A stretch of DNA of 64,000 nucleotides from Candidatus Avedoeria danica (GCA_016703025.1 JADJCV010000004.1:299164-363163); one strand, 5' to 3'. Positions 28,263-48,951 are shown, counted from the first letter of the stretch. The notes: generated by a model not told the origin, from the letters alone. Numbers and translations: made by a program.

Positions 28263-28362
28263 CGCTGCGGCGCCCCCGGCGACGGGACGACGGCGAGCCC
28301 GTCTGAGCCGCGGGCAACAACTGAGCCACGGACAACAACAACTGAACAACGCGAACAACAGC

Positions 28363-28391: not shown

Positions 28392-28398
28392 TGCCGTG

Positions 28399-28471
28399 TA
28401 CCCCCGGCACGGCTCGAACGTGCGACCTACTGGTTCGAAGCCAGTTGCTCTGTCCACTGAGCTACGGGGGC
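28399..28471 (-). tRNA. tRNA-Arg (anticodon TCG by manual fold)
   Basis: Reverse complement GCCCCCG-TA-GCTC-AGTGGACA-GAGC-A-ACTGG-CTTCGAA-CCAGT-AGGTC-GCACG-TTCGAGC-CGTGC-CGGGGGT-A gives a 73-nt cloverleaf with a T-loop TTCGAGC and anticodon loop CTTCGAA. Confidence 0.8.
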
Positions 28472-29758: not shown

Positions 29759-29812
29759 TCCGATGGCCGATGTTCGTCCGATGGCCAGCGTTCGTCCGAT
29801 GGCCCGGGTCCG
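29759..29812. repeat. 3 x 18-bp direct repeats (GTCCGATGGCCnnnGTTC) upstream of VWA gene
   Basis: Read directly. Lies 47 nt upstream of the ATG at 29859. Confidence 0.4.
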
Positions 29813-29858
29813 ATCGACTCCTTCCGATCGCAACCTATCGCAACGTCAGGATGCCGCC

Positions 29859-31253
29859 ATGAACTTCCGTGACCGCCCGCCGTTCCGAGCCGCGCCGCGA
29901 TGCACGCCGAGCGATCGGCCACGACGCCGCACGCTGGCCGTCGTCGGCGCGCTCGCGCTCATCGGCGCGCTGGCCACCACGCTGTCCGCGTTCGATGCGG
30001 CCGCGGCGCAGGGGCAGGCGCAGGACTCGTGCAGCTTGGCCGTCGACAAGACGGCGGCGCCGGGGCGGATCTGGCTGGGCGAGGAGGTCACGGTCACGCT
30101 GTCCATCACGGGCAGCTGCACGGCGCGCGAGATCAAGTCCGACGTCGTGCTCGTCATCGACCGCTCGCGCTCGATGCTCAGCGCGGGCAAGTTCGTCGCG
30201 GCGCGCGCGGCGGCCAAGAACTTTATCGACCGCGCCGACCCGAACCTGATCCAGATCGGCATCGTGGCGTTCGACGACGTGGCCGAGTCCGTTCACTTCC
30301 TGTCCACGGACAAGACTGCCCTGAAGGCGGCGGTCGACGGGATCTCGCCGGACACCGGCACGAACCTCGTCGACGGGCTGGACGAGGGACGGAAGATGCT
30401 CGCCAGCGCCGGGCGCCGGGCGGACGCGCGGCCGGTGATCATCTTCCTCACGGACGGCCGCCACTCCGTCGGCTCGCCCCCGATCACCGACCTGCCGCGC
30501 GTCGTCGCCGACGTCCGCGCGGCCGGCATCCTGGTCTACACGATCGGCCTCGGCAACGACATCGACGAGTCCAACCTGCGCCAGATGGCCAGCGACCCGA
30601 CGAAGTACTTCCGCTCGCCGACGGCGGCCGAGCTCGAGGCGATCTACATGCAGCTCGTCGGCACGATCAGCGCCACCGAGCTGATGAAGGAAGCGTTCAT
30701 CGTCGACGAGCTGCCGGCCGACATGACGTTCATCCCGGGCAGCGGCCAGCCGGCCGAGCCGACCGTCAGCCCGGACGGCCGGACGCTGACGTGGCGCCTG
30801 GTGTCCGTGGCGATGCCGCCGCCGATGCTCTCGCTGTCCTACCGCGTGCGGCCCACCCGAACCGGCACCCGCCCGACGAACGTCGAGGCGCGCGCCGACG
30901 TCACGGACGGCTTCAGCAAGCGCCAGACGCTGCTGTTCCCGGTGCCGTCCGTCCTCGTCCTCGCGCCCGTCACGCCAACGCCCCCGCCGACCGCCACGCC
31001 GCCGCCGGCCGGCGCGCAGTGCGTCTGCCGCGTGACGCGCAACAAGGTGCCGCAAGCCGTCATCGACGCGGCGCTGGCCGACCCGTCCAAGGTGTATGGC
31101 TGGCAGCAACCCCTGAACCCCAACGTGCCGGGCCCGGTGCTGCCGCAGAACCCGCCGCGGACGTGCCTTGACCTGTTGAACCGCGGGGTGCAGTACCACC
31201 CGTTGTTCAACAGCGTGATCTGGCGGGCGGGGTGTTTGATCGGGCCTCCGTAG
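29859..31253 (+). CDS. Secreted VWA-domain protein with DUF11-like middle domain and Cys-containing C-terminal tail
   Basis: Signal-like MNFRDRPPFRAAPRCTPSDRPRRRTLAVVGALALIGALATTLSA. MIDAS motif DVVLVIDRSRSM…TDGRHS. PT linker. Confidence 0.7.
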   Translation: MNFRDRPPFRAAPRCTPSDRPRRRTLAVVGALALIGALATTLSAFDAAAAQGQAQDSCSLAVDKTAAPGRIWLGEEVTVTLSITGSCTAREIKSDVVLVIDRSRSMLSAGKFVAARAAAKNFIDRADPNLIQIGIVAFDDVAESVHFLSTDKTALKAAVDGISPDTGTNLVDGLDEGRKMLASAGRRADARPVIIFLTDGRHSVGSPPITDLPRVVADVRAAGILVYTIGLGNDIDESNLRQMASDPTKYFRSPTAAELEAIYMQLVGTISATELMKEAFIVDELPADMTFIPGSGQPAEPTVSPDGRTLTWRLVSVAMPPPMLSLSYRVRPTRTGTRPTNVEARADVTDGFSKRQTLLFPVPSVLVLAPVTPTPPPTATPPPAGAQCVCRVTRNKVPQAVIDAALADPSKVYGWQQPLNPNVPGPVLPQNPPRTCLDLLNRGVQYHPLFNSVIWRAGCLIGPP

Positions 31254-33286: not shown

Positions 33287-35432
33287 CTACCGCCGCCCCC
33301 AAAACGCCCCCGCCGGACAAGGCAACCGCACCGCGATCGAGCTGTAAATCCCCGCCAACGCCTCCGCATCCGGCGCCACGAACGCATCCGCCGGCCGGCT
33401 AGCGATCGCCCGCAGCGCGTCCACGTCCAGGTCGTACCCGACGCCCACGGTGAACACCGTCACGCCCGCCGCCTTGGCGCGCGCCGCCTCCGCCACCGCC
33501 ACGTCCGCCGGCACCGGGTTCGCGCGGCCGTCCGTGAGGACGATCATCGCCGCGGCGTTCTCGGCCCTGCGCCGCGCCGGGTCGGCGAGCGCTTCGGCGG
33601 CGACGGCGACGGCGCGGTCGAGGCGGGTGAGGGATGCCGTGGTGATGGAGGCGAGCGCGGCGTCGAGGGCGGCGCGGTCATCGGTCAGCGGCTGGAGGAG
33701 CCAGGCGTCGCTGTTGAACGTGACGATCGCGGCCTGATCGCCCTCGGCCAGCCGGAGCGTGCCGAGGAACGTGCGGGCGGCGTCGACGGCGGCGGCGAGC
33801 TTGGTGCGGCCGGCGGCGGTGGGCTCGGTCATGGACGACGAGGCGTCGATGGCGAGGGCGATGTCGACGTGGCGCTCGGTGGGGGTGCAGGATTCGGTGA
33901 GGGCGAGGGGGAGGTAGACGGGGGCGGGGAGGGGTGTGGGGGTCGCGGGGAGGGTCGGCGTGGCGGTTGGGAGGGGTGACGGGGTGGCGGTGGCGCGATG
34001 GGACGGCGTGGGCGTTGGGGTGAGCGTGAGGGTGGTGGGATGCGGTGGGAGGGGGCGTCGGGGAGGGCGGGGGGGTGAGGAGGCCGTTGGCGGTCCAGAT
34101 GTCGCCGGGGAGGTTGTTGCGTACCGTTGAGGCGATGAGCATGCGGCGGAGTTCAAGGCGACGACCGCCATCCAGTACTTCGATGACGGCGAAGTCGCCA
34201 TCGCCATTCTCTTCGGACGAGGCGGCGATCAAGTATTGACCACTGGCGCTCCAGGCAACGGACAGTGATGGCCCACCGGGCGCGCGCGTGAAGGCGCGAT
34301 CACCAGGATAGATCATCGTGTAAGGAGCTCGAATCGGAAGTCGGGCAATCTCACGGGCGATATACGGTCGCTCAGCATCGTAGGCGCGGTCCGAAGGTGA
34401 CATTTCGACAAGTTCGTACACGGCAACGATCGTGTTGGCATGAACAGCCAGGAGGCCACGGTTCAACCACGCATTGTTGAACGCTACGCCTCCCACATAC
34501 TTGAAGTCCGGTGCAAGTGGCACAGTCTGTGCGGTGCGGCTCACAATGTCGATCGCCGCGATGTTTCCGGCGAATTGGCGATTCGTTACGACTAGGTTGC
34601 CGCGCGCGTTCAATGTGGCATGGAGGGCAGGTAGGGATCTGCCATGGCCATAGTAGAAGTGTGGCGGCGAGACGGCGGTCGGGAACGGGATGGGTTCGGC
34701 AAGTTCCGACCAAGTCGCACCATCCATTGACTCAATCGTTCCTCCGTCCGTCATGATGATGACGTGATCATCGCGCCCAGTGGGCAGAATCTCGACGGCG
34801 AGGTGTTCCGTGCGCGGACTGGCGCTCACTGTATCGAGGTCTGGACGCGATCCCCCTGTACTGCTGAATCGGATGCGGTCGATGCCGTAGGGTGGCTGCG
34901 GAATCAAGACATAGCCCTCGGGGCTAACCGCGTATCCTGCTCTGGCGGCAAGAAACGAACCATCAGGCATCGATGAAATCGCACCATACGATGCAAAGTC
35001 AGGGCCGCGCACACGGCCCTCAACAAAGCGACCAGACGAACTTGTGTCCGCGTTTGCAACGATAGCAAACGGTGAACAGGACTTGCTAATGTCGACTTGT
35101 TCTTCGCCAAACCCAAGTCCGCAACCAGAACCAGTTCCCGCGACGATTGTCGAAAGATCGGCCACGGCTGCCATTCGTCCAAGAATATTGTACGTCTCTC
35201 CGCGAAAAATGAGTGCCCCGATGTCGATGTTGTGAATAGTAATGGCTGACATTCCATCATCGGGACGCATGTTTGGATAAACATGGTCGTCGATTAGCAC
35301 CACCGCGCTCAGAGGATCAATGTATGTTTGAGCTCCCGCAATAGTCTCCGCCGCAAATACAATAGATGCAACCCATGCTCCGACAAGAGCGAGGGCCGAT
35401 GAGAGGTCAAGTCTAAGGCGGCACTTTCTCAC
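33287..35432 (-). pseudogene. Cassette A large gene: signal peptide + propeller-like domain + PT linker + VWA, frameshifted in linker (two track ORFs 33678..35432 and 33287..34207)
   Basis: GTG start MRKCRLRLDLSSALALVGAWVASIVFAAETIAGAQ. Compared with copy C there is a 1-nt insertion just after …TPPPTAS (~34045), shifting the VWA part into another frame. Confidence 0.5.
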
Positions 35433-35548
35433 GACAATTCCCCGCGACGGCTAGGTAATGGTGGCAGTGAGCCTCACATTCGCCCACTGCCACCATTACC
35501 CGTCAACGATTAACCATGACTGGCCTACAAGGTGTGAGCGGGTGCCCG

Positions 35549-36304
35549 TTAGTTGTAGATGATGTCCACTTGGGGGCCGCTGGCGCCTGCACACGAGTAT
35601 GTGCATTCGAACGCACCACTATCCGTCGTGCCGAACGTTTGACTGACCGGGCTGACTGATGTTCCTTCGGAGCAGAGCAAAGCGTCGATCTGGTTGCCGT
35701 CATCAACGCTCGTCGTCTCGTACTCCACACGCGACAGATAGCCGTTTACCTGTGGCTGGCAAGAGATGCTGCCGAACACCCCGTTGATCTTCGCCAGATC
35801 CACAACCAACTCGTAGCCCCAGCTGTTGTCGATGCTCATCCCGCTTCCGCAGCCGTATGTGGCGCAGACAGTCACGCCGTAGATCGGGCCGGTAGACGAG
35901 TTGCAGCCGGTGCATGACGCCGACCAACTGTCGGTGGAGTCCGACCAGTCAACATCCACGGTTACCTGGGAAGATGTGGTCGTTTGGCACCTGCAAGGTA
36001 GAGTCTCAAGCAATCGAGAGTCCCAATAGCCGGTGATTGTCCAGGACTCGCCCGTATCCGGCTCCACGGCGACCACGTCGTCTCCGCCCACTTGGTCGTA
36101 GTGGATGACATCGATTGCGGACACCTGGCGGCTAAAGTTGACGCAGTCATTCTGTCCGCAGTACTGTGCGTGGGCGACGTGCGGTGCCAGCGCCACCATC
36201 ACGGCCGCGGCCACCGCCGCAAGGCCAACACTAACGCGAATGGGAATCAGCCGACGCGATGTGCGTCCGATCGGGGGCGGGGAGGAAATAACGGTAAACA
36301 ACAT
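35549..36304 (-). CDS. Cassette A small gene: secreted Cys-rich ~225-aa protein (12 Cys), family unknown
   Basis: AGGAGG RBS. Signal MLFTVISSPPPIGRTSRRLIPIRVSVGLAAVAAAVMVALAPHVAHA|Q. Conserved blocks SAIDVIHYDQ, DVDWSDSTDSWSASCTGCN, ATYGCGSGMSIDNSWGYELVV, FECTYSCAGASGPQVDIIYN. Markedly lower GC than neighbours. Confidence 0.7.
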   Translation of the reverse strand: MLFTVISSPPPIGRTSRRLIPIRVSVGLAAVAAAVMVALAPHVAHAQYCGQNDCVNFSRQVSAIDVIHYDQVGGDDVVAVEPDTGESWTITGYWDSRLLETLPCRCQTTTSSQVTVDVDWSDSTDSWSASCTGCNSSTGPIYGVTVCATYGCGSGMSIDNSWGYELVVDLAKINGVFGSISCQPQVNGYLSRVEYETTSVDDGNQIDALLCSEGTSVSPVSQTFGTTDSGAFECTYSCAGASGPQVDIIYN

Positions 36305-36418
36305 GATCCACTACCTCCTGATTGAGCGGCCTGTAGGGGGCAGACCGCCCGGCGGGTTGCCGGAGGCGTGTACTTTGCCGTCACGGCGGTGGGGAATCCC
36401 GCGGGGATGGACGGGGCC

Positions 36419-36448
36419 AGTCTACCCGGCGATCAAACGCATGTCAAT
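36419..36448 (-). promoter_or_regulatory. Conserved sigma70-like promoter TTGACA-N17-TAGACT ~110 nt upstream of cassette-A small gene (copies also near 39740, 43030, 46300)
   Basis: Minus-strand read ccaTTGACAtgcgtttgatcgccgggTAGACTggcc. The same architecture with 17-nt spacers occurs in the other three units (-10 TAGACT or TAGGCT). Confidence 0.45.
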
Positions 36449-36573
36449 GGCCTTCCAAGAACTCGCGACACCGACACGACAGCCACTCCTGCCTTACCGA
36501 TACCATCGTTGCAGACCGGGGACATTGGCTCGATCCGCCCTGTAAGTTGCTTCCTCCGTCGCACAGCGAGGCG

Positions 36574-38742
36574 CTACCGCCTTCCCCAAAACACCCCCAC
36601 CGGACAAGGCAGCCGCACCGCGATCGAGGCGTAAATCCCCGCCAGCGCCTCCGCATCCGGCGCCACGAACGCATCCGCCGGCCCGCTCGCGATGGCCCGC
36701 AGCGCGTCCACGTCCAGGTCGTACCCGACGCCCACGGTGAACACCGTCACGCCCGCCGCCTTGGCCCGCGCCGCCTCCGCCACGGCCACGTCCGCCGGCA
36801 CCGGGTTCGCACGGCCGTCCGTTAGGACGATCATCGCCGCGGCGTTCTCGGCCCTGCGCAGCGCCGGGTCGGCGAGCGCCTCGGCGGCGACGGCGATGGC
36901 GCGGTCGAGGCGGGTGAGGGAGGCCGTGGCTATGGAGGCGAGCGCGGCGTCGAGGGCGGCGCGGTCGTCGGTCAGCGGCTGGAGGAGCCAGGCATCGCTG
37001 TTGAACGTGACGATCGCGGCCTGATCGCCCTCGGCCAGCCGGAGCGTGCCGAGGAACGTGCGGGCGGCGTCGACGGCGGCGGCGAGCTTGGTGCGGCCGG
37101 CGGCGGTGGGCTCGGTCATGGACGACGAGGCGTCGATGGCGAGGGCGATGTCGACATGGCGTTGGGAGGGGGTGCAGGATTCGGTGAGGGCGAGGGGGAG
37201 GTAGATCGGGGCGGGGAGGTGCGTTGGGGTGGCGGTGGCGGTCGATGATGGAACGGTGGTCGGCGTGAGAGTTGCCGGCACGGGAGTCGGTGTTGGTGTA
37301 TCGGTCGCGGTTGGCGTCAGCGATGATGTCCGTGTTGGTGTGGGGGACGAGGTGGGCGTGGCCGAGGGGCCGATTCGGCCATTGGCGGTCCAAATGTCGC
37401 CGGGGAAACTGTTGCTCGTGGTCGATGCGGCGAGCATGCGTCGCTGCTCGAGGCGGTGGCCGTTGTCGAGCACCTCGATGACGGCGAAGTCGCCGCCACC
37501 GACTTCTTCGGACGAAGCGGCAATGATGTACTGGCCGCTTGTGCTCCACGCGATGGAGTACGACGGGCCCATTGGGGCCTCAGTCAAGGCCCGTGAACGC
37601 CACCACTCGGCGTCGAACGGCCGTCCGATGGACAGACGTGCCACTTCACGCGCAACGTAGGGACGCGCGGGCTCAAACAATGGATCGCCAGCCGGTACTG
37701 CGGACAGTTCATACACTGCTATGAAGCTGTCAGCGTGTACTGCGAGCAGATTGCGATTCACCCAGCCATTGTTGAACGCGACGCCGCCCGTAAACGGAAT
37801 GTCGGGCGCTAGCGTTGCCGTCTGTGCGGTGCGACTCTCCAAATCGATGATGGCGATGTTACCGGCATTGAGGCGATTGGTCACGACGAGTCGTTCGTTG
37901 CCATTCATCGTGGCATGAAGTGCTGGAAGCGGTCGTCCGCGGCCATAGTAATGATTGTCAGGCGCGACAGCAGTCGGAAAAGGGATCGGGGGATCAATTT
38001 CGATCCAATTCGACGCATCCCTTGATTCTATCATGCCGCCATCGGTCATGATAACAACGTGGTCACCTTGTGCCTTGGGTAGAATCTCAATCGCAAGGTG
38101 GTCCATCTTTGGGCTAGAGCTCAACAACACCTTCTGAGGGCGATTCCCTATCGGCCGTCGAAATCGGACCCGGTCGATACCGTACGGCGACTCAGGCACC
38201 AGTGCGATGAATCCGGCGTCCACTTGACGGAAAGCGGCCCTGGCGAGCACAAACGATCCGTCGGGCAATGTGGCATTACCACCAAACCCGGCGAGGTCCC
38301 TGTCGAACAAGCGGGCGTCGGAGTATGGCGGATGGGACCCGGGACTGGCATCGGCAACGACGGCGAATGGAGAGCATGTGATGTCCATTACAGGCAGTTC
38401 GCGCGGGCGCCAGCCACAACCTTCTCCAGACCCAGCCACGATCATCGAAAGATCCTGAGTTGCAGACACCCGCCCAATTCCAACATACGATCTTCCACGA
38501 AACGTGGACACACCCGTTGGAATGTCATGGATCGTAATGGCTCCTTCGCCCTCACCATCACGCGCTTCGGGATGCATGGTGACGTCGATGAGCACCACTG
38601 TATCAACAGGATTCACATCAACAGGGCTATCTGGCGACTGAGCCCTTGCGTGATCAACAAGATGATGGAGAACTTGACCCATACACAAGATTGTAAACAT
38701 CCACGAAACAAAGACTGATGTATTCTGTCGACTCTTATGCAC
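36574..38742 (-). CDS. Cassette B large gene: secreted propeller-like / PT-linker / VWA protein
   Basis: GGGGAGAG RBS then GTG. Signal MHKSRQNTSVFVSWMFTILCMGQVLHHLVDHARA|Q. Divergent N-domain with a conserved VWA C-terminus. The track ORF start at 38817 looks like an upstream extension. Confidence 0.7.
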   Translation of the reverse strand: MHKSRQNTSVFVSWMFTILCMGQVLHHLVDHARAQSPDSPVDVNPVDTVVLIDVTMHPEARDGEGEGAITIHDIPTGVSTFRGRSYVGIGRVSATQDLSMIVAGSGEGCGWRPRELPVMDITCSPFAVVADASPGSHPPYSDARLFDRDLAGFGGNATLPDGSFVLARAAFRQVDAGFIALVPESPYGIDRVRFRRPIGNRPQKVLLSSSPKMDHLAIEILPKAQGDHVVIMTDGGMIESRDASNWIEIDPPIPFPTAVAPDNHYYGRGRPLPALHATMNGNERLVVTNRLNAGNIAIIDLESRTAQTATLAPDIPFTGGVAFNNGWVNRNLLAVHADSFIAVYELSAVPAGDPLFEPARPYVAREVARLSIGRPFDAEWWRSRALTEAPMGPSYSIAWSTSGQYIIAASSEEVGGGDFAVIEVLDNGHRLEQRRMLAASTTSNSFPGDIWTANGRIGPSATPTSSPTPTRTSSLTPTATDTPTPTPVPATLTPTTVPSSTATATPTHLPAPIYLPLALTESCTPSQRHVDIALAIDASSSMTEPTAAGRTKLAAAVDAARTFLGTLRLAEGDQAAIVTFNSDAWLLQPLTDDRAALDAALASIATASLTRLDRAIAVAAEALADPALRRAENAAAMIVLTDGRANPVPADVAVAEAARAKAAGVTVFTVGVGYDLDVDALRAIASGPADAFVAPDAEALAGIYASIAVRLPCPVGVFWGRR

Positions 38743-38863
38743 GCTACTTACTCTCCCCAAGTAGATGGCGGCCGCGGAGGCTGGACGCCAAGCAAGCCTG
38801 CCCCCGCGGCCGCACACTCATCTACTCACATCGGCACGTCCAGACGCCGGTACGGTGCCCAAT

Positions 38864-39613
38864 TCAGTCATACACGATGTCGACTTGTGGCCCGCTCGCC
38901 GCTCCGCACGAGAATGTGCACTCGAACGGGCCGGAGTCGGTAGTGCCGAACGCTTGACTGACCGGACTGACGGCAGTGCTCTCGGAACAGTACAGAGTGT
39001 TGATCTGGTTACCGTCGTCCACGCTGGTGGTTACGTACACGACGCGGTTGAGGAACGACGGGTTGGAGCCCCCGCCACAAGTGGACCCATTGTTTTCATC
39101 GACGCTCACGACTAGTTCGTAGCCCCAACCGTTGTCAATGCTCATGCCGCTGCCGCACCCGTACGTACTACAGATGGCGACTCCGCGCACTGGCCCAGCG
39201 AACGCATTGCAGCCAGTGCATGTGGCCGACCAGCCAGTGCTATCTGACCAGTCCACCGCTACATACACGACAGCGTTGCTGACAGCATCGCAGTCACACC
39301 AAATCGGATCACTGCCGAGTTGGTTCCAATACGCCGTTATCGTCCAGTGTTCGCCCGTGTTAGGCTCAACGGGTACAACCTCAGTATCGTCGATCTGGTC
39401 GTAGTGGATGACGTCGATGGCAGACACTTCGATTACAGCGGTTGAACAGTCATTGCGGCCACAGCCACCCTGAGCGTACGCGGCCTGCGGTGCCAGCGCC
39501 GCCATCACAGCTGCGGCCACCGCCGCAAGGCCAACGCTAACGGGGATGGGAATCAGCCGACGCGACGTGCGTCCGATAGGGGGCGGGGGAGGGGATATAA
39601 CGGTGAACAACAT
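38864..39613 (-). CDS. Cassette B small gene: secreted Cys-rich protein paralog
   Basis: MLFTVISPPPPPIGRTSRRLIPIPVSVGLAAVAAAVMAALAPQAAYA|Q. Same Cys pattern as the 35549..36304 gene. The track ORF extends to 39694 through in-frame leader sequence. Confidence 0.7.
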   Translation of the reverse strand: MLFTVISPPPPPIGRTSRRLIPIPVSVGLAAVAAAVMAALAPQAAYAQGGCGRNDCSTAVIEVSAIDVIHYDQIDDTEVVPVEPNTGEHWTITAYWNQLGSDPIWCDCDAVSNAVVYVAVDWSDSTGWSATCTGCNAFAGPVRGVAICSTYGCGSGMSIDNGWGYELVVSVDENNGSTCGGGSNPSFLNRVVYVTTSVDDGNQINTLYCSESTAVSPVSQAFGTTDSGPFECTFSCGAASGPQVDIVYD

Positions 39614-39883
39614 GATCAAGTACCTCCTGATACGGCGGCCTGATTGGGGGCAGACCGCCCGGCGGGTTTCCGGAGGCGTGTACTTTGCCGTCACGGCGGT
39701 GGGGGATCCCGCGGGGATGGACGCGGCCAGTCTAACCGGCGATCAAGCGCTTGTCAATGGCCTTTCAAGAATTCGCGACACGGAAACGACATCACTTCCT
39801 GTCTTTCGGAGGCTTCCATGGGAGACTGCGGAAATTGGCTCGATCCGCCCCGAAAGTCGCTTCCTCCATCGCAAGTCACTCAC

Positions 39884-42043
39884 CTACCGCCTTCCCCAAA
39901 ACGCCCCCGCCGGACACGGCAACCGCACCGCGATCGAACTGTAAATCCCCGCCAGCGCCTCCGCATCCGGCGCCGTGAACGCATCCGCCGGCCCGCTCGC
40001 GATCGCCCGCAGCGCGTCCACGTCCAGGTCGTACCCGACGCCCACGGTGAACACCGTCACGCCCGCCGCCTTGGCCCGCGCCGCCTCCGCCACCGCCACG
40101 TCCGCCGGCACCGGGTTCGCGCGGCCGTCCGTGAGGACGATCATCGCCGCGGCGTTGCCCGCACTGCGCCGTGCCGGGTCGGCGAGCGCCTCGGCAGCGA
40201 CGGCGACGGCGCGGTCGAGGCGCGTGAGGGATGCCGTGGTGATGGAGCCCAGCGCGGCGTCGAGGGCGGCGCGGTCGTCGGTCAGCGGCTGGAGGAGCCA
40301 GGCGTCGCTGTTGAACGTGACGATCGCGGCCTGATCACCCTCGGCCAGCCGGAGCGTGCCGAGGAACGTGCGGGCGGCGTCGACGGCGGCGGCGAGCTTG
40401 GTGCGGCCGGCGGCGGTGGGTTCGGTCATGGACGACGAGGCGTCGATGGCGAGGGCGATGTCGACGTGGCGTTGGGAGGGGGTGCAGGACTCGGTGAGGG
40501 CGAGGGGGAGGTAGATGGGGGCGGGGAGTGGTGTTGGCGTGGCGGTGAGGGAAGGCGTGGCGGTGGGGAAGGGCGATGGGGTGGCGGTGGCGAGGGGGGA
40601 AGGCGTGGGCGTTGGGGTGAGCGTGGGGGTGGGGGATGCGGTGGGCGTGGGCGTTGGGGAGGGCGGGGGGGTGAGGAGGCCGTTGGCGGTCCAGATGTCG
40701 CCGGGGAAGTTGTCGCGGGTGGTGGATGCCGTGAGCATCCGGCGGTACTCGAGCGTGCGCCCGTCGTCCATTACCTCGATGACCGCGAAATCGCCATCGC
40801 CGGTGTCCTCCGATGATGCGGCGATGAGATAGCGACCATCCGCGCTCCAGGCGATCGAGTACGCCGGGCCAAAGGGCGCGACGGTGAGCGCACGAGTTCG
40901 AAGCCAACTGGAGTTGATGGGCCGCCGAATGCTGAGTCGGGATAGCTCCGCGGCTTCGTACGGCCGCGCGGGATCGTACGAAGCATCGCTCGTCGGAACG
41001 GGAGACAGTCGGTATACAGCCACGTACTCGTCCGCGTGGACTGCCAGCAGATCATCGTTCAGCCACGCATTGTTGAATGCGACGCCGCCTGCGAATCGGG
41101 CGTCTGGCGCCAATGTTACGGTTTGAGCAGTGCGTGCCACCAAGTCGACAAGAGCGATGTCGCCGGCAATCAGTCTGTTGGTCGCGACGAGGCGCTCCTC
41201 GGAATTCATAGTTGCGTGGAGAGCGTGGATTGGGCGTCCCTTTCCGTAAGACATGTGATCGGGAGCCGTGGCCGTTGGAAATGAGATTGCTGCACCCATC
41301 GGCGACCAAGTATCGATGTTGAATGACTCGATGGTGCCGCCATCTGTAAGCACAATAATCGTTTTGTCATCTCGAGTAGGTAGAATTTCTACCGGAAGAT
41401 GATTTAGGTTGGAACTTGAGTCGACTCGTTCAATTTGCGGATAGTTGGAAATCGGACCCTTGAATCGTATGTGATCGAGGCCAAATGGTGGCTTCGGAAC
41501 GACGACATTAAACGGAATGTCGTGTCGAATCTGCTGTCCGGAACGAGTCATTATGAAGGTGCCATCAGTCAGCGCGGCAACGCCGCCGAACGGTGCATAG
41601 TCACGGTCGCGTGAACGGCCATCCACAAGGCGCGAAGATGAATCCAGCTTCCACTCTGCCAGGAGCGCGAATGGTTTGCACCTTTGGTCGAAGTCCCCTG
41701 CCCAAGTGGCCTCATCGACTCGAAACCCACAGCCCTCGCCCGGCCCGGCGATCAGCATTGACAAGTCGCTGGACGCCGCCATCCTTCCTAGTCCAAGATA
41801 CGATCGTCCGCGTACAAGCGATTCGCCGTTATCCACATTGTGAATCGTCAGCGCCCCTTGTCCATCATATGGCCGCGACAACGATCCCGTTAGCGTAACA
41901 TCAATGAGTACCACGGCTCTCACAAGATCAGGTAACGTTTGCGCGTGTACACGAATAACTACCGCAATAGCCAATCCAATCATCGACAGCCCGGTGACAA
42001 GGATTCCTGTGATCGCGTGGAGCCGAGGCGCCTTTCGATTCAT
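39884..42043 (-). CDS. Cassette C large gene: secreted propeller-like / PT-linker / VWA protein
   Basis: MNRKAPRLHAITGILVTGLSMIGLAIAVVIRVHA|Q. Intact single ORF of 719 aa. Confidence 0.7.
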   Translation of the reverse strand: MNRKAPRLHAITGILVTGLSMIGLAIAVVIRVHAQTLPDLVRAVVLIDVTLTGSLSRPYDGQGALTIHNVDNGESLVRGRSYLGLGRMAASSDLSMLIAGPGEGCGFRVDEATWAGDFDQRCKPFALLAEWKLDSSSRLVDGRSRDRDYAPFGGVAALTDGTFIMTRSGQQIRHDIPFNVVVPKPPFGLDHIRFKGPISNYPQIERVDSSSNLNHLPVEILPTRDDKTIIVLTDGGTIESFNIDTWSPMGAAISFPTATAPDHMSYGKGRPIHALHATMNSEERLVATNRLIAGDIALVDLVARTAQTVTLAPDARFAGGVAFNNAWLNDDLLAVHADEYVAVYRLSPVPTSDASYDPARPYEAAELSRLSIRRPINSSWLRTRALTVAPFGPAYSIAWSADGRYLIAASSEDTGDGDFAVIEVMDDGRTLEYRRMLTASTTRDNFPGDIWTANGLLTPPPSPTPTPTASPTPTLTPTPTPSPLATATPSPFPTATPSLTATPTPLPAPIYLPLALTESCTPSQRHVDIALAIDASSSMTEPTAAGRTKLAAAVDAARTFLGTLRLAEGDQAAIVTFNSDAWLLQPLTDDRAALDAALGSITTASLTRLDRAVAVAAEALADPARRSAGNAAAMIVLTDGRANPVPADVAVAEAARAKAAGVTVFTVGVGYDLDVDALRAIASGPADAFTAPDAEALAGIYSSIAVRLPCPAGAFWGRR

Positions 42044-42154
42044 GGACTTTCGACTCCTGAATGGCGGGAGCAGCGAAGACGCACTTTCGCCTCCGCTGCT
42101 CTCGGCTCACCGTAGTGACTCCGAATTCAATTGTCGACCTAGGTCAGCACAGCG

Positions 42155-42899
42155 TCAGTTGTAGACGATGTCCACCGTAGGGCCACTCGCGACACCGCAC
42201 GAATTGGTGCACTCGAACGGACCGCTGTCGGTAGTGCCGAAGGCCTGCGAGATTGGACTGACCGCAGTGCTTTCGGAGCACAATAGGCCATTGATCTGGT
42301 TGCCGTTGTCGACGCTGGTTGTCACGTACTCAACCTCCGAAAGGAAGCCGTCCACGGCCCCATTGCACGTCGTCCCGTTTTTCTCGTTCAAGCTAACAAC
42401 GAGCTCATAACCCCAGCTGTTGTTGATGCTCATCCCGCTGCCGCAACCATACGTTGTGCAGATCGTAACCCCAAATACGGGGCCGACGAACGCGTTGCAT
42501 CCTGTGCAGGTTGCAGACCAGCTGTTGGTGGCATCTGACCAATCCACCGCTACATCGACCTGAGCCGTGGCCGTATGATCGCAGTCACACTGCTCTGGCG
42601 CACCGTGGGTCGAGCCCCAATACGCAGTGATCTCCCAGTCTTCGCCAGTATTGGGCTCGACTGCGATCACTGTGGTGGGGTTGATCTGGTCGTAGTGAAT
42701 GACATCTATGGCGGAAACTTCAATCGTGCCGGGCGCACAATCGTCTTCGCCGCAGTATTGTGCGTACGCCGCCTGTGGTGCCAGCGCCGCCATCACGGAC
42801 GCGGCCATCACCGCAAGGCCAACGCTAACGCGGATGGGAATCAGCCGACGCGACGTGCGTCCGATCGGGGGCGGGGGGGGATATAACGGTAAACAACAT
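42155..42899 (-). pseudogene. Cassette C small gene: Cys-rich protein paralog with +1 frameshift in a C8 (plus-strand G8) tract just after the start codon
   Basis: ATG TTG TTT ACC GTT ATA TCC CCC CCC GCC… shows one extra C relative to the in-frame paralogs (TCC CCT CCC CCG), giving a stop after 24 codons. The track ORF restarts at internal MMAASVMAALAPQAAYAQ. Confidence 0.5.
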
Positions 42900-43169
42900 G
42901 ATCCAGTACCTCCTGATACGGCGGCCTGTATGGGGGCAGGCCACTCGGCGGGTTGCCGGAGGCGTGTACTTTGCCGTCACGGCGGTGGGGGATCCCGCGG
43001 GGATGGACAGGGCCAGTCTACCCGGCGATCAAACGCTTGTCAATGGCCTTTCGAGAACTTGCGACACCGAAACGACATCACGTTCTGCCTTATCGAGACG
43101 TCCGTTGCAGACCGGGAAAATTGCCTCGATCCGCCCTGCAAGTCGCTTCCTCCGTCGCAAGCCGAAGCG

Positions 43170-45317
43170 CTACCGTCTCCCCCAAAACGCCCCCGCCGGA
43201 CAAGGCAACCGCACCGCGATCGAGCTGTAAATCCCCGCCAACGCCTCCGCATCCGGCGCCACGAACGCGTCCGCCGGCCGGCTCGCGATCGCCCGCAGCG
43301 CGTCCACGTCCAGGTCGTACCCAACGCCCACGGTGAACACCGTCACGCCCGCCGCCTTGGCGCGCGCGGCTTCGGCGACGGCGACGTCCGCCGGGACGGG
43401 GTTCGCGCGGCCGTCCGTGAGGACGATCATCGCCGCGGCGTTCTCGGCCCTGCGCCGCGCCGGGTCGGCGAGCGCTTCGGCGGCGACGGCGACGGCGCGG
43501 TCGAGGCGGGTGAGGGATGCCGTGGTGATGGAGGCGAGCGCGGCGTCGAGGGCGGCGCGGTCGTCGGTCAGCGGCTGGAGGAGCCAGGCGTCGCTGTTGA
43601 ACGTGACGATCGCGGCCTGATCGCCCTGGGCCAGCCGGAGCGTGCCGAGGAACGTGCGGGCGGCGTCGATGGCGGCGGCGAGCTTGGTGCGGCCGGCGGC
43701 GGTGGGCTCGGTCATGGACGACGAGGCGTCGATCGCGAGGGCGATGTCGACGTGGCGTTGGGAGGGGGTGCAGGATTCGGTGAGAGCGAGGGGGAGGTAG
43801 ATGGGGGCGGGGAGGGGCGTCGGGGTGGCGGTGGAGGAGGGCGTGGCAGTCGGGAAGGGCGATGGGGTGGCGGTGGCGAGGGGAGACGGCGTGGGTGTGG
43901 CGGTGAGCGTGGGGGTGGGAGAGGCAGTGGCGGTGGGCGTCGGGGAGGGCGGGGGGGTGAGGAGGCCGTTGGCGGTCCAGATGTCGCCGGGGAGGTTTTC
44001 GCGGACAGTTGAGGCGACTAGCATGCGGCGGAGTTCAAGGTGCCGCCCGTCATCTAGAACCTCGATGACGGCGAAGTCGCCATCGCCGTTCTCTTCCGAG
44101 GCGGCGGCGATCAAGTACTGGCCACTTGCACTCCAGGCAATTGAAAGGGAAGGACCACTGGGGGCATTCGTGAAAGCACGATTGCCGGGATAATCAGAAT
44201 TGTAGGGTGCTCGAATCGGCAGTCTTGCGATCTCGCGCGCCACGTAAGGGCGCGAAGCATCGTATGCCGCGTCCAAGTTGGACATCGCTACAAGTTCGTA
44301 CACGGCCACCAGCGTGTTGGCGTGTACAGCTAGAAGGTTGCGGTTTAGCCACGCGTTGTTGAACGAAACGCCGCCCACATACTTGAGGTCCGGCGCCAGT
44401 GCAACGGACTGTGAAGTGCGGCTGACGACATCGATCGCTGCGATGTTGCCAGCGAATTGACGGTTCGTTACAACAAGGCCTCTGTGCGTATTCATCGTGG
44501 CATGAAGCGCAGGCAGAGATCGTCCTTGGCCAAAGTAATAGTGCGGCGGTGAGACTGCTGTCGGGAACGGGATTGGTTCGGCAAGCACCGACCAGGTTGA
44601 GACGTCCATCGCCTCGATCGTCCCACCGTCCGTCATGATGATGACCTCATCACCACGACCAGTTGGCAGAATCTCGACTGCGAGGTGGTCGGTTCGCGGG
44701 CTGGCGCTGACCGTGTCGATCCCGGCACGCGTCCCAACGTTGCGCCGGAAATGAACACGATCGATGCCAAAGGGCGGTTGCGGCAACATGACCAGGCCAA
44801 TGTCATGAAGGGCGTATCCCGCCCTGGCGAAGAGGAACGAGCCATCCCGCATGGCAGCGACTGCACCATAGGTTGCAAAGTCGCGGCCGCGAACGCGCCC
44901 TTCCTGGAACAGTTCCGGCCCGGTACTATTCAACTCTGCGACAATGGCGAACGGGGAACATGAATTGAAGCCGTTGATCTGCTCTTCGCCAAAATGAAAC
45001 CCACAATTGTAGCCGGTGCCGGCAGTGACAAATGACATGTCTGGCGATGCGGACATCCGCCCCAAAGCGCTGTATGTTTTGCCTCGAAAAATACGCGCGC
45101 CGCTTTCAATATTGTGTATGGTAAGGGCCGACATGCCATCATTGGGCCGCACGTTGGGTGAGATATGGTCGTCGATGAGAATTACCGAATGGAGCACGTC
45201 GATCGAGGTCTGTGCGCGCGCGGCATTGTGTGTCGTGAAAGCTACAGCGGTTACGCAAGTTCCTCCCAATGCGATGGCCAGGACTGTGGGAACTCGACTG
45301 CGCAAGCCACTCATCAC
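43170..45317 (-). CDS. Cassette D large gene: secreted propeller-like / PT-linker / VWA protein
   Basis: MMSGLRSRVPTVLAIALGGTCVTAVAFTTHNAARA|Q. 715 aa. N-domain most similar to copy A. Confidence 0.7.
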   Translation of the reverse strand: MMSGLRSRVPTVLAIALGGTCVTAVAFTTHNAARAQTSIDVLHSVILIDDHISPNVRPNDGMSALTIHNIESGARIFRGKTYSALGRMSASPDMSFVTAGTGYNCGFHFGEEQINGFNSCSPFAIVAELNSTGPELFQEGRVRGRDFATYGAVAAMRDGSFLFARAGYALHDIGLVMLPQPPFGIDRVHFRRNVGTRAGIDTVSASPRTDHLAVEILPTGRGDEVIIMTDGGTIEAMDVSTWSVLAEPIPFPTAVSPPHYYFGQGRSLPALHATMNTHRGLVVTNRQFAGNIAAIDVVSRTSQSVALAPDLKYVGGVSFNNAWLNRNLLAVHANTLVAVYELVAMSNLDAAYDASRPYVAREIARLPIRAPYNSDYPGNRAFTNAPSGPSLSIAWSASGQYLIAAASEENGDGDFAVIEVLDDGRHLELRRMLVASTVRENLPGDIWTANGLLTPPPSPTPTATASPTPTLTATPTPSPLATATPSPFPTATPSSTATPTPLPAPIYLPLALTESCTPSQRHVDIALAIDASSSMTEPTAAGRTKLAAAIDAARTFLGTLRLAQGDQAAIVTFNSDAWLLQPLTDDRAALDAALASITTASLTRLDRAVAVAAEALADPARRRAENAAAMIVLTDGRANPVPADVAVAEAARAKAAGVTVFTVGVGYDLDVDALRAIASRPADAFVAPDAEALAGIYSSIAVRLPCPAGAFWGRR

Positions 45318-45430
45318 ATACTCCGGCGTTCATGGAGGGCGGCGGCGTTAGGCCGACAACTCGGCCACACGCCGTCGCCCCGATCAGTGACGTTCTCTCC
45401 AAGGCTCGCTGGAACTGACCGGTGGCCCGC

Positions 45431-46183
45431 TCAGTTGTAGATGATGTCTACCTGCGGTCCGCTGGCGCCCGCGCACGAGTAGGTGCACTCGAATGCACCA
45501 TTGTCTGTCACGCCAAACGACTGGCTGATCGGACTTACAGCCGTGCTCTCAGAACACAGGAGTCCGTTAATCTGGTTGCCATCATCGACGCTCGTAGTCA
45601 CGTACTCTACGCGCGTCAGATATCCGTTCACGCCCGGATTGCAGGAGATGCTGCTGAACATTCCATTGATCTTCAGCACGTCAACAACCAGTTCGTACCC
45701 CCAACTGTTGTCAACGCTCATCCCGCTGCCGCAGCCGTACGTGGCACAGACGGTAACGCCATAGATCGGCCCATTCGTCGGGTTGCAGCCCGTGCAGGAT
45801 GCCGACCAGCTATCGGTGGAGTCGGACCAGTCAACATCGACGGACACAGATGCCGAGTTCGTCTGTTGGCACTGGCAGGCGAGTGGATTCGCCAGCAGCG
45901 AGTCCCAGTAAGCCGTGATCGACCACGTCTCTCCGGTGTCCGGCTCCACCGCTACGACGTCATCGTCGTCGATCTGGTCGTAGTGGATGACATCGATCGC
46001 GGACACTTGGCGGTTGAAGTTGACGCAGTCATTGCGTCCACAGGTCTGCGCATACGCCGCCTGCGGTGCCAGCGCCGCCATCACGGCCGCGGCCACCGCC
46101 GCAAGGCCAACACGAACGCGGATGGGAATCAGCCGACGCGACGTGCGTCCGATCGGGTTGGGGGATACAAAGGTAATCGACAT
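45431..46183 (-). CDS. Cassette D small gene: secreted Cys-rich protein paralog
   Basis: AGGAGG RBS. MSITFVSPNPIGRTSRRLIPIRVRVGLAAVAAAVMAALAPQAAYA|Q. The track ORF extends to 46264. Confidence 0.7.
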   Translation of the reverse strand: MSITFVSPNPIGRTSRRLIPIRVRVGLAAVAAAVMAALAPQAAYAQTCGRNDCVNFNRQVSAIDVIHYDQIDDDDVVAVEPDTGETWSITAYWDSLLANPLACQCQQTNSASVSVDVDWSDSTDSWSASCTGCNPTNGPIYGVTVCATYGCGSGMSVDNSWGYELVVDVLKINGMFSSISCNPGVNGYLTRVEYVTTSVDDGNQINGLLCSESTAVSPISQSFGVTDNGAFECTYSCAGASGPQVDIIYN

Positions 46184-46565
46184 AATCCAGTACCTCCTGA
46201 TAGGACAGCCTGATTGGGGGCAGGCCGCCCGGCGGGTTGCCGGAGGCGTGTACTTTGCCGTCACGGCGGTGGGGGATCCCGCGGGGATGGATGGACGGAG
46301 GGAAGCCTACAGGCACTCGGCGCGGGTGTCAATAGGTGCATGCGTTGTTGAACTGTGGAATCCAATGAATAATTTACAATTCCTTCTCGACATCCGCACA
46401 GTTGACGACGCTTTGAACTGCACAGAGTGCACGACACTCAGGCGCGAAAGGACATCTGACTGACTAGGTTCTCTTCAACTCTATCGAAGTTACAGTTCGC
46501 ATGCCTGTAACACTCGCGTGCAATCTGTCGCACATTGATCGCGCCGCAGTTCCACCGCGTGTCTC

Positions 46566-48554
46566 TTACCGCCGCCCCCAAAACGCCCCCGCCGGACAAG
46601 GCAACCGCACCGCGATCGAGCTGTAAATCCCCGCCAACGCCTCCGCATCCGGCGCCACGAACGCATCCGCCGGCCGGCTAGCGATCGCCCGCAGCGCGTC
46701 CACGTCCAGGTCGTACCCGACGCCCACGGTGAACACCGTCACGCCCGCCGCCTTGGCGCGCGCCGCCTCCGCCACCGCCACGTCCGCCGGCACCGGGTTC
46801 GCGCGGCCGTCCGTGAGGACGATCATCGCCGCGGCGTTCTCGGCCCTGCGCCGCGCCGGGTCGGCGAGCGCTTCGGCGGCGACGGCGACGGCGCGGTCGA
46901 GGCGGGTGAGGGATGCCGTGGTGATGGAGGCGAGCGCGGCGTCGAGGGCGGCGCGGTCATCGGTCAGCGGCTGGAGGAGCCAGGCGTCGCTGTTGAACGT
47001 GACGATCGCGGCCTGATCGCCCTCGGCCAGCCGGAGCGTGCCGAGGAACGTGCGGGCGGCGTCGACGGCGGCGGCGAGCTTCGTGCGGCCGGCGGCGGTG
47101 GGCTCGGTCATGGACGACGAGGCGTCGATGGCGAGGGCGATGTCGACGTGGCGTTGGGAGGGGGTGCAGGATTCGGAGAGGGCGAGGGGGAGGTAGATGG
47201 GGGCGGGGAGGGGCGTGGGGGTGGCGGTGGGGGAAGGAGTGGCGGTCGGGAAGGGCGTTGGGGTGGCGGTGGCGAGGGGGGACGGCGTGGGCGGGGCGGT
47301 GAGCGTGGGGGTGGGGGACGCGGTGGGGGTGGGCGTTGGGGAGGGCGGGGGGGTGAGGAGGCCGTTGGCGGTCCAGATGTCGTTGGGGAGGTTTCCGTTC
47401 TCGGTACATGCAGTCAGATAGCGTTCAATCTCAAGGTCCCGCCCGTCGTCTCGCACGTCGATGACGACAAACTCGGCGTCATCATGATCGGTAGCGGCGA
47501 TGATGTGTGTTCCTCGTGAGGACCATGCGACCGAGAAAAGGGGTCCGGCGGCCGCGGATTCGACCACGCTCAATCCTTGCTTTGCAGCGTTGCTCGGCGG
47601 ATCAATCGCGATCCGTCCAACTTCGCTAGCCGTCGAGTCGGCCATTAGACGATAGACGACCACTAGATCCATAGCATGTACGGCTAGTAGTCCGGAATTG
47701 ATCGGGCCGGCATTGATAGATACGCCATCCACAAAACGTAGATCAGATGACAGCGGGACAACTACTGATTTGCGCGTTGCCACGTCAATCATGGCGATGC
47801 TCGGGGATAGCATCCGATTGACGATGATACGTCGCCCGTCGGCCATGATCGTCGCATGCATTGCTCCGATTGCCGCCTTCCCTCCATACGGACGACTATA
47901 TCCTGACACCGCAGTCGGATACGGGATGGGAGGCTCCGCCCACTTCATCGTACTCGTGTCAATGACTCCAACACTGCCATTGGATTGAACAATTGCCGTA
48001 AATCGTGAATCCGCAGTTCGAAGGAACTCAATCGGCAAAGATGCGATGGCCATGCGCCCGAGTTGTAGTGCAAGAGCATCTCGATTCGCGATAGCCGCGG
48101 GTAACGTGATGCGAGCAACAAAGTAGGGCGACCTTGGGACAAGAATGCTTGCACCATCGTTGAGATCATAGCCAGCCTCGGCGACCAAGAGCGTTGAATC
48201 GCGCAGGAATGCAATGCCTCCCATCGTGCCAAACTTGTTGCCGCGAATCCGCCCCGTTGAGAAGCCTCCTCGACTGCCATCAACGGCCGTGAGGGCGATG
48301 AGTGCTGGCGTGCAATCCGGTGGATTGGGTTCGCGAAAGCTCACTGCGCAGCTATTGCTCAACGTGCTAATCATCACCGACGCATCATCTCGAACTGCCA
48401 GTCTACCCGGAGACACGAGGGTGTCGCTACTCTGAATTCGTGAACCGTCCACTATGTTGAATACCGAGATTGCATCACATCCGGCTGAGTCCATTGCCAG
48501 ATCTTCCGTGACGACTACCAGGTCCTCAAGTTGGACTTCGGTCTGAGCCCCCAC
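46566..48554 (-). CDS. Terminal (5'-most) large paralog E: divergent propeller-like domain + PT linker + identical VWA; no recognisable signal peptide and no small-gene partner
   Basis: GTG start directly after an in-frame TGA. The N-terminal 450 aa is much more divergent than in A-D. VWA and linker match copy A at DNA level. Confidence 0.55.
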   Translation of the reverse strand: MGAQTEVQLEDLVVVTEDLAMDSAGCDAISVFNIVDGSRIQSSDTLVSPGRLAVRDDASVMISTLSNSCAVSFREPNPPDCTPALIALTAVDGSRGGFSTGRIRGNKFGTMGGIAFLRDSTLLVAEAGYDLNDGASILVPRSPYFVARITLPAAIANRDALALQLGRMAIASLPIEFLRTADSRFTAIVQSNGSVGVIDTSTMKWAEPPIPYPTAVSGYSRPYGGKAAIGAMHATIMADGRRIIVNRMLSPSIAMIDVATRKSVVVPLSSDLRFVDGVSINAGPINSGLLAVHAMDLVVVYRLMADSTASEVGRIAIDPPSNAAKQGLSVVESAAAGPLFSVAWSSRGTHIIAATDHDDAEFVVIDVRDDGRDLEIERYLTACTENGNLPNDIWTANGLLTPPPSPTPTPTASPTPTLTAPPTPSPLATATPTPFPTATPSPTATPTPLPAPIYLPLALSESCTPSQRHVDIALAIDASSSMTEPTAAGRTKLAAAVDAARTFLGTLRLAEGDQAAIVTFNSDAWLLQPLTDDRAALDAALASITTASLTRLDRAVAVAAEALADPARRRAENAAAMIVLTDGRANPVPADVAVAEAARAKAAGVTVFTVGVGYDLDVDALRAIASRPADAFVAPDAEALAGIYSSIAVRLPCPAGAFWGRR

Positions 48555-48672
48555 CCGTTCAGGTCATAGAAGCCGGAGCGCCATGGTGGCAATCAAGGTG
48601 ACGGAGAGCCACTCGGCCCCGCGAGCGGGTCGGGCGCAGAAGTGACGATGGCCAGTGGGCGACCATCGCGCG

Positions 48673-48696
48673 AGAGACGAGCGCCCGGAGGCTTCA
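48673..48696 (-). terminator. Perfect 11-bp inverted repeat GCCCGGAGGCT-tc-AGCCTCCGGGC downstream of the 48952..52623 gene
   Basis: GC hairpin. The flank is only weakly U-rich. Confidence 0.3.
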
Positions 48697-48787
48697 GCCT
48701 CCGGGCGGTCGTCGGTTGCGCGGGGACCTGCCCGTTTACCCCGCTTCCCACGCCGTCGCACGCCCCGCCACACACCGTGTACTTCGT

Positions 48788-48853
48788 GTCACACGCCAGT
48801 GCACACCGCGTCACACGCCAGTAGACTTCGCGTCACACGCCAGTGCATCTGCC
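48788..48853. repeat. 3 x 22-bp direct repeats (GTCACACGCCAGTrnannnncnc) in the region upstream of paralog E
   Basis: Units read as gtcacacgccagtgcacaccgc, gtcacacgccagtagacttcgc and gtcacacgccagtgcatctgcc. Confidence 0.4.
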
Positions 48854-48951
48854 GCCGCACGCCCGCGCGCTTCGAGACACACGCCACCCGGCCCTTCGTT
48901 CCACGCTGTGCGGGTTGGAGGACAAACACGGTCTGCGTCGGCGCACCGCAC

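Follow-up and report, generated by a model that had tools for sequence, protein, structure and literature searches.

Evidence for segmental concerted evolution in a tandem array of secreted beta-propeller and VWA genes of Candidatus Avedoeria danica

Five tandem genes of Candidatus Avedoeria danica encode proteins that are nearly identical over their C-terminal part and diverged over their N-terminal part, which raises the question of how one end of a gene is kept alike among copies that differ so strongly at the other. The genes lie in a stretch of 64,000 nucleotides (GCA_016703025.1 JADJCV010000004.1:299164-363163), here called the window and numbered from its first letter. Positions 33287-48554 of the minus strand are a tandem array of propeller-VWA genes with genes for small Cys-rich secreted proteins between them. 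The array has five large and four small genes, all on the minus strand, with a repeat period of 3.29-3.40 kb; in reading order, large gene E stands alone and is followed by the pairs D, C, B and A, each composed of a small and a large gene. The GC content of the window is 70-76% and drops to 58-66% at about 34-48 kb. The host belongs to the Chloroflexota, and the closest locus in the genome collection is from a metagenome-assembled genome (MAG) of the Ardenticatenales. An initial annotation made from the sequence had recognized the array of large genes, although the four small genes escaped it, as did the frameshift that splits A and the loss of the 5' end of E, and it placed the end at 47300 where the array reaches 48554. 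The results reported here indicate that the locus very likely reflects segmental concerted evolution in a conserved two-gene secreted cassette, with recombination homogenising the VWA and the variable parts being ancient.

Constant and variable parts of the array

Nucleotide identity between the copies was determined in 100-nt windows. It was 35-85% over the N-terminal ~1.4 kb and 92-100% from the linker to the stop codon, bearing out the mosaic of a constant C-terminal module and a variable N-terminal part that had first been proposed; divergence was not uniform along the unit and stepped sharply from the lower to the higher range at the linker. As also proposed, the N-domains ranged from similar to divergent, with D at 70% amino-acid identity to A, B at 54%, C at 49% and E at 35%. 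The propeller DNA of A and D was the most alike and that of E the least. The boundary at which identity reached at least 80% was at the linker start in C (40737), D (44013-44023) and E (47409), and in B at 37247, the end of a linker private to that copy. On A the boundary was at 34141 for the A-C pair and at 33960-33990 for the other pairs, and the A linker contains a divergent patch. The longest exact matches were 515 nt for A-E (33288-33802 identical to 46567-47081), 164 nt for both A-D and D-E, and 161 nt for A-B. B and C differed from A and E at 27-28 of 613 VWA positions (4.5%), more than the few substitutions originally ascribed to them. The identical antisense open reading frames (ORFs) reported for the near-identical stretches were set aside as evidence, being a trivial outcome of identical GC-rich DNA.

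Synonymous and nonsynonymous divergence was estimated by the Nei-Gojobori method (NG86). The proportion of synonymous differences (pS) between propellers was 0.65-0.79, corresponding to a synonymous divergence (dS) of at least 1.5 or not computable, and the ratio of nonsynonymous to synonymous divergence (dN/dS) was 0.12-0.18 in the least saturated pairs. For the small genes, dS was at least 1.56 and dN/dS 0.08-0.12. In the VWA, dS was 0.012 for A-E and 0.10-0.18 for the other pairs, a fall of more than 10-fold inside the constant module, with dN/dS of 0.06-0.23; the A-E value of 0.58 derives from only 5 differences. Since the VWA is young at synonymous sites, constraint at the protein level cannot explain the constant module. 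Since the dS of the propellers is saturated, their dN/dS is low and the B propeller is unchanged in protein across assemblies, the propellers and small genes are old discrete types under purifying selection. The same observations, including the absence of nonsynonymous changes in the B propeller, contradict the diversifying selection on the N-domain that had been suggested.

The phylogenetic signal also differed between the two parts. In small gene and propeller alike, A and D grouped as sisters and E was the outlier; in the VWA, A was sister to E, a conflict of topology. Since A and D are sisters in both genes, the results indicate that units were duplicated as pairs. Mosaicism was analysed over 613 gap-free columns comprising the linker end and the VWA, with 60 variable sites. 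Runs of shared variable sites were non-random (p <= 0.003 for A-D, D-E and A-E), and 10 of 45 informative site pairs in the VWA failed the four-gamete test. The private patch of D (Table 1) was seen in no other copy or assembly and is read as a short tract from a donor outside the array. The drop in dS, the topology conflict, the clustered tracts and the paralog-type differences between assemblies and strains uphold the earlier proposal of concerted evolution of the module by gene conversion.

The G+C content at third codon positions (GC3) was 0.56-0.64 in the propellers, 0.69-0.75 in the small genes, 0.93-0.94 in the VWAs and 0.90-0.94 in flanking host genes, and the GC3 step coincided with the identity boundary of each copy. 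In C, D and E, GC3 was at least 0.85 from just before the linker, whereas in B it was 0.65-0.70 in the private linker and at least 0.93 only where the homogenised tract begins. Cassettes single on their contig had a uniform GC3, with propeller/VWA values of 0.605/0.595 (L007) and 0.80/0.83 (L003), and a second multi-copy lineage showed the same step (0.66-0.68 versus 0.89-0.90). The step fits GC-biased gene conversion, which may link conversion to the high GC3 of the tract, and also fits a pooled lower-GC origin of the variable cassettes.

In the mechanism proposed, the variable part of the unit is the small gene plus propeller, representing ancient discrete types held by purifying selection, and the constant part about 0.65-0.85 kb of linker plus VWA that recurrent homologous recombination (gene conversion) would keep 92-100% identical, with short tracts occasionally arriving from alleles outside the array. 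Recombination presumably cannot start in the diverged propeller DNA, so that homogenisation would stop sharply at the linker with a breakpoint differing by copy. The repeats probably also permit unequal crossing-over, with change of copy number, and swaps of whole variable cassettes between genomes. We infer both the recombination mechanism itself and the biological role considered below.

The two-gene unit and its products

The small-then-large gene pair was found again in unrelated contigs (L007-L009, 229 aa + 684 aa; L010; and L011, with two pairs), results indicating that the real unit is the small gene followed by the large gene. The features of the array are given in Table 1. Large gene E is a 5'-truncated copy, since the signal peptide is missing and a stop codon lies directly upstream. 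Both end copies of the array look defective (A by the insertion at 34036, E by its upstream region, 48554-48960), and they are also the most similar VWA pair. The start of large gene B is likely GTG 38742, a reading of the sequence that gives a proper signal peptide. The product of small gene A has a 100% match in NCBI, MBK6768331.1 / IPG72_04760, recorded for an Ardenticatenales bacterium MAG.

Table 1. Features of the array, in window coordinates (RBS, ribosome-binding site).
Feature	Position	Strand	Remarks
Large gene A	33287-35432	minus	two overlapping ORFs, split by a 1-nt insertion (extra A) at 34036 in the linker
Constant module of A	33287-34141	minus	
Small gene A	35549-36304	minus	251 aa
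Promoter-like box	36419-36447	minus	TTGACA-17-TAGACT, identical to that at 39729-39757
Large gene B	36574-38817	minus	intact; private linker, only VWA (36574-37247) homogenised
Small gene B	38864-39613	minus	
Promoter-like box	39729-39757	minus	TTGACA-17-TAGACT, identical to that at 36419-36447
Large gene C	39884-42043	minus	719 aa, intact
Constant module of C	39884-40737	minus	
Small gene C	42155-42899	minus	ATG 42899 out of frame (C8 at 42873-42880); long ORF from GTG 42811
Promoter-like box upstream of small gene C	43015-43043	minus	TTGACA-17-TAGACT
Large gene D	43170-45317	minus	715 aa, intact; signal peptide, 7-bladed propeller, linker, VWA with MIDAS motif
Constant module of D	43170-44023	minus	
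Private patch of D	43368-43398	minus	8 consecutive synonymous third-position changes in 11 codons
Small gene D	45431-46183	minus	250 aa; signal peptide, Cys-rich all-beta, no Pfam match
Intergenic region, E stop to small gene D	46184-46565	minus	first ~250 nt unique, then TTGACA-17-TAGGCT box, leader, AGGAGG RBS
Large gene E	46566-48554	minus	propeller, Pro/Thr linker, VWA; no signal peptide, no small partner gene
Constant module of E (linker + VWA)	46566-47409	minus	99% identical to A module, 97% to D module

Downstream of B, C, D and E there is a near-invariant promoter-like box, a ~110-nt leader, an AGGAGG RBS and the 5' end of a small gene. Among themselves, the intergenic regions of B, C and D show about 80-90% identity. 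Past the VWA, the constant stretch extends across the promoter and leader of the following small gene and the part that codes for its signal peptide, where identity is about 90%. The sequence 3' of the A stop codon is unrelated to that of the other copies because A ends the array. With this result and the unique stretch that follows E, the claim of a downstream region and promoter shared by A, D and E had to be dropped; the designation of that region as a 3' untranslated region is likewise a eukaryotic reading, and the locus lies in a bacterial genome of 70-76% GC. A cis-regulatory RNA in the leader was considered and rejected, there being no Rfam match, a fold z-score of -0.96 and no conservation of the leader in L007, L010 and L011. 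Three imperfect direct repeats, CACTGGCGTGTGAC(G/A)CG..., lie on the minus strand at ~48700-48860, between copy E and a gene for a 1280-aa VWA protein; similar repeats are present in MAG SJ541 (L001 ~8330-8430).

The large proteins are composed of a Sec-type signal peptide ending A-x-A↓Q, a ~430-aa N-domain, a ~60-aa Pro/Thr linker and a C-terminal VWA that ends in a conserved CP..FWGRR tail. The VWA (PF00092) scored 66.7-70 bits in B, C, D and E against a gathering cutoff of 23.8 (E-value about 1e-18). All five translations carry what reads as a complete metal-ion-dependent adhesion site (MIDAS) motif, DxSxS...T...D, composed of DASSS, a downstream Thr (LTRLD) and LTDG. The AlphaFold (AF2) model of the N-domain predicts a 7-bladed beta-propeller (predicted local distance difference test 85.8, predicted template modelling score 0.85). 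Foldseek matched the model at E-values of 1e-8 to 1e-9 to 1jju_B, 5c2v_B, the heavy chain of methylamine dehydrogenase, WD40 proteins and the lactonase 4qrj, thus to propellers of the amine-dehydrogenase, hydrazine-synthase, WD40 and lactonase classes. The N-domains of the array gave no Pfam or NCBIfam match to named propeller families (FG-GAP, WD40, Lactonase, SGL and others), and one distant family member had a weak Lactonase match. Among 1.84 billion proteins, the propeller family comprised 206 representatives (at 50% identity) at E <= 1e-3, mostly of the same propeller plus VWA architecture; a further homologue search with a 21-sequence propeller profile found nothing new.

The small-protein search returned 43 proteins at E <= 0.01, and neither this family nor that of the propeller has a Pfam model. 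The mature small protein, exemplified by the product of small gene D, gave a confident all-beta model with 12 Cys residues, most of them conserved across the family. The predicted structure appears beta-sandwich-like; the model had no significant fold match in the PDB. A twin-arginine translocation signal was rejected, the leader sequence 'TSRRLIPI' resembling one but finding no support from a hidden Markov model. Also rejected was a candidate homologue of the small protein, the 232-aa product of a gene in L003 that lies upstream of P0006, since the alignment was unconvincing. Searches of Pfam, NCBIfam and PADLOC with the array proteins revealed no toxin, immunity or defence family, NCBIfam giving only sub-threshold generic VWA models, and no paper naming both Ardenticatenales and von Willebrand was found in the literature collection searched. 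The domain content suggests that the proteins are extracellular metal-dependent binders that have the VWA end in common and owe their specificity to the propeller, perhaps with a contribution from the co-inherited small protein.

Public gene calls for the near-identical assembly GCA_963852785.1 (L002/L005) begin the large genes at internal Met codons and give products of 441-479 aa; the DNA under these calls matches the 719-747-aa ORFs of window positions 36574-42043. The full-length C and D proteins were absent from a collection of 15 billion proteins. It seems that gene callers trained on a high-GC genome reject the low-GC3 propeller.

Large VWA genes crowd the neighbourhood of the array (10728-14168, 29763-31253, 48952-52794 and 56519-60607). 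Their products are at most 44% identical to the array VWA and include an FG-GAP+CARDB+VWA protein and two double-VWA proteins, of which the one encoded at 48952-52794 also has a weak match to a propeller-type family (SGL). Three of the four have Cys-containing tails (...VCR, ...ACR and CPPGPLWAGR). These genes were rejected as donors of the constant module, the best match being 44% amino-acid identity (p1280).

Other assemblies and alternative explanations

The near-identical strain represented by GCA_963852785.1 (L002 and L005) is colinear with window positions 55315-23269 and contains the same five units, with 273 differences in 32 kb. Those within the array were concentrated in the linker/VWA, with 51 in copy A, 23 in copy E, a few in D and one site each in B and C, and the propellers of all copies differed at 0-9 sites. 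The A and E linkers of this assembly carry D-type states, a pattern that an artefact of polishing or repeat assembly could also give. Outside the array, differences clustered at 49500-49999, 51500-51999, 52500-52999, 54000-54499 and 28000-28999. The first of these clusters lies within the 1280-aa VWA gene and consists of 34 substitutions and no indels; it may represent a further recombination tract. The remaining clusters are indel-rich.

Diverged genomes were also compared. In MAG SJ541 (L001), the flanks are 88-94% identical to those of the window and a flanking 236-aa gene has pS 0.16; the array is represented only by a 150-nt remnant of a VWA tail and one small plus B unit. From small gene B into the VWA, as far as its first ~200 nt (window ~39699-37000), identity to the window is 99.3%, and the remainder of the VWA is about 6.5% different and ends A-like. 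Over 426 codons, the B propeller of SJ541 departs from that of the window by 1 synonymous and 0 nonsynonymous changes, and the same propeller in ENA contig L006 departs from it by 2 synonymous and 0 nonsynonymous changes, the two comparisons covering 350-426 codons. The VWA mosaic of L006 is different again, and the unit next to B is not that of the window. The VWAs attached to B-type propellers in SJ541 and the ENA contig are 94% identical to the VWA of window B and 96-97% to those of window A and E; the VWA of window B is itself 96% identical to those of A and E. All VWAs of the clade are 94-99% identical regardless of the propeller attached. A scan for exact matches to the 32-nt leader yielded two JGI contigs (L012 and L013) with new cassette types and a 95%-identical VWA. 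The copy number in SJ541 and the apparent transfer of a cassette across species are only suggestive, since short-read assemblers switch strains and skip units at repeats.

An independent lineage showed the same organization. Contig_39 of ERZ25072933 (L011; 4956-7431 and 9117-11812), whose VWA is 65% identical to that of the window, contains two cassettes whose propellers are unalignable (31-56%) and whose identity is 99-100% from the linker to ~400 nt past the VWA. The identical tract heads to a repeated pair of small minus-strand genes, one with DUF433, that follows each cassette.

The foremost alternative is that pre-formed cassettes of small gene and propeller were swapped in from a lower-GC population pool via the constant flanks, the low GC3 reflecting pooled or foreign origin. 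Import of this kind is quite possible, though short of probable, and overlaps with the explanation favoured here, alongside which it could act. It would account for the contrast in SJ541 between the B cassette and its more diverged flanks, where the breakpoints lie in the leader and inside the VWA, for the new types behind an identical leader in L012 and L013, and for the different unit after B in L006. GC3 of the variable parts is also similar (0.56-0.68) between two lineages and L007, a single-copy host of 61% GC. However, chimeric contigs produced at repeats by short-read assemblers mimic such breakpoints, the sister relationship of the A and D units in both genes fits duplication in place, and import alone leaves unexplained why the VWA has the GC3 of the host and the propeller of the same gene does not.

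Less credible is an antigenic-variation or contingency locus, in which positive diversifying selection would drive rapid change of the N-domain and gene conversion would shuffle the variants; we consider this unlikely. The layout of constant and variable modules fits, the products are secreted with an adhesion-type VWA, and metagenomes contain more cassette types behind the same constant module. The poly-C tract following the ATG of small gene C (42873-42880, minus strand) varies in length, being C8 in the window and C9 in the sister assembly (both out of frame) and C7, in frame, in L012 (247 aa). Slipped-strand phase variation and homopolymer error fit this variation alike, and such a difference is typical of long-read assembly error. 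Against this alternative are the low dN/dS at saturated dS, the B propeller protein unchanged across three assemblies, the fewer differences between sister strains in propellers than in modules, and the source, an environmental Chloroflexota MAG. In the Neisseria pilE/pilS, Borrelia vlsE and Anaplasma msp2 systems, there is one expression site with promoterless silent cassettes, and the variable region changes between close isolates. The array is like these multigene families in that conserved flanks guide recombination of variable segments. It is unlike them in that none of units A-D lacks a promoter-like box, leader and RBS of its own, and the large genes all retain long ORFs broken only by the A frameshift and the 5' loss of E. 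No layout of expression site and promoterless partial cassettes was found in the array, where three identical TTGACA-17-TAGACT boxes and a close fourth variant are present, and the variable region was nearly unchanged (0-9 propeller sites between the sister assemblies, 0 nonsynonymous changes in the B propeller across genomes). The resemblance to antigenic variation that was first remarked upon is thus superficial, while a polymorphic surface-protein locus in a looser sense, a pool of ancient cassette types exchanged via constant flanks, is plausible.

That repeat collapse, or polishing with multi-mapped reads, created the near-identity is highly improbable. The sequences are indeed MAG assemblies, and the differences between the long assemblies sit in repeats and include indels in C-rich tracts. 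The 94-99% identical module is nevertheless present in the window and in GCA_963852785.1, in SJ541, in one MEGAHIT contig and in two from JGI, the same pattern occurs in another lineage, and at the 60 variable sites the second assembly shows the copy-specific variants of B, C and D again; moreover, polishing cannot turn 40% identity into 95%. The weakest alternative, that there is no recombination and that purifying selection just acts far more strongly on the VWA than on the propeller, accords with the greater conservation of the VWA across distant members (in P0006 the propeller is 26% identical, and the VWA and CP...WGRR tail align by eye) but is ruled out by the synonymous-site contrast, since selection on the protein cannot erase synonymous differences (VWA dS 0.01-0.18 versus >1.5 in the propeller), and is further opposed by the near-invariant non-coding leader, the topology conflict and the clustered tracts.

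Several observations weigh against segmental concerted evolution as formulated above. All sequences are from metagenome assemblies, in which repeats may be chimeric or polished alike, and artefact may therefore contribute to the exact identity of A and E, to the differences seen from one assembly to the next, to the single unit in SJ541 and to the apparent transfer of a cassette. Conversion was deduced from patterns in the sequence and not seen as direct events. The function proposed derives from domain content alone, the propeller and small protein being without characterised relatives. With regard to GC-biased conversion, the homogenised stretch of leader and signal peptide does not have a raised GC3 (0.70), and the base changes in the VWA, too few to be decisive, show no bias: shared variants were 3 weak-to-strong and 3 strong-to-weak (few sites, unpolarised), and singletons were 10 weak-to-strong and 21 strong-to-weak (few sites, without outgroup polarisation). 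With these counts and the leader GC3, the GC-biased part of the explanation is only correlative.

Known systems and significance

The process of concerted evolution is well known, whereas the protein family described here is uncharacterised. The babA/babB/babC genes of Helicobacter pylori, encoding Hop adhesins, have near-identical ends and divergent ligand-binding regions, undergo segmental gene conversion and carry 5' repeat tracts that can switch expression. The array is like bab in comprising paralogous surface-protein genes with constant and divergent segments and conversion between the copies. The two differ in that bab genes are scattered instead of tandem, lack a partner gene that varies with them and carry the variable part centrally, in a host-adapted pathogen, whereas the variable regions of the array are ancient, under purifying selection and N-terminal. 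The array proteins are also like integrins in combining a 7-bladed beta-propeller with a MIDAS-bearing VWA in an extracellular protein, a likeness of fold and domains that does not imply homology. They are unlike integrins in having no FG-GAP repeats, which are present in the neighbour at 10728-14168, and in placing the VWA C-terminally after a linker instead of inside the propeller.

An account of polymorphic toxins attributes their diversity to recombination that draws on standalone cassettes (Zhang et al. 2012, PMC3482391). Like the orphan arrays of contact-dependent inhibition and Rhs systems, the locus has variable modules each with a small adjacent co-varying gene, and constant pieces that can be homology arms. 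Unlike those arrays, it has the variable part at the N-terminus, the small gene upstream, signal peptides on both products, and no toxin or immunity domain detected. Prokaryotic paralogues are kept more alike than their age predicts by gene conversion (Wang & Chen 2018, PMC6053082), and gene conversion occurs in the PE/PPE antigen families of M. tuberculosis (PMC13061034). The array differs from these cases in that homogenisation is confined to one domain, ends at a breakpoint particular to each copy and coincides with a step in GC3.

A more speculative extension, which we put forward tentatively and with considerable doubt, is that the constant VWA and leader are the portable homology arms of a cassette system operating at the level of the population. 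Ancient co-varying pairs of small Cys-rich protein and propeller would be exchanged among genomes of filamentous Chloroflexota, across species as well, and arrays would acquire or lose them, the types being kept by balancing selection, for example in cell-cell or kin recognition or in evasion of phage or predator attachment. The array would in addition be an intragenic natural experiment in which recombination alone lifted GC3 from about 0.6 to 0.93.

The array defines an uncharacterised family of secreted two-gene cassettes. The unusually clean coincidence of the GC3 step, the identity step and copy-specific breakpoints within single genes is relevant to the debate on how far recombination shapes GC content in bacteria. 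Types of propeller and partner appear to be shared almost unchanged across diverged genomes; if this is true on closed genomes, it would point to a locus of recognition or specificity in filamentous Chloroflexota.

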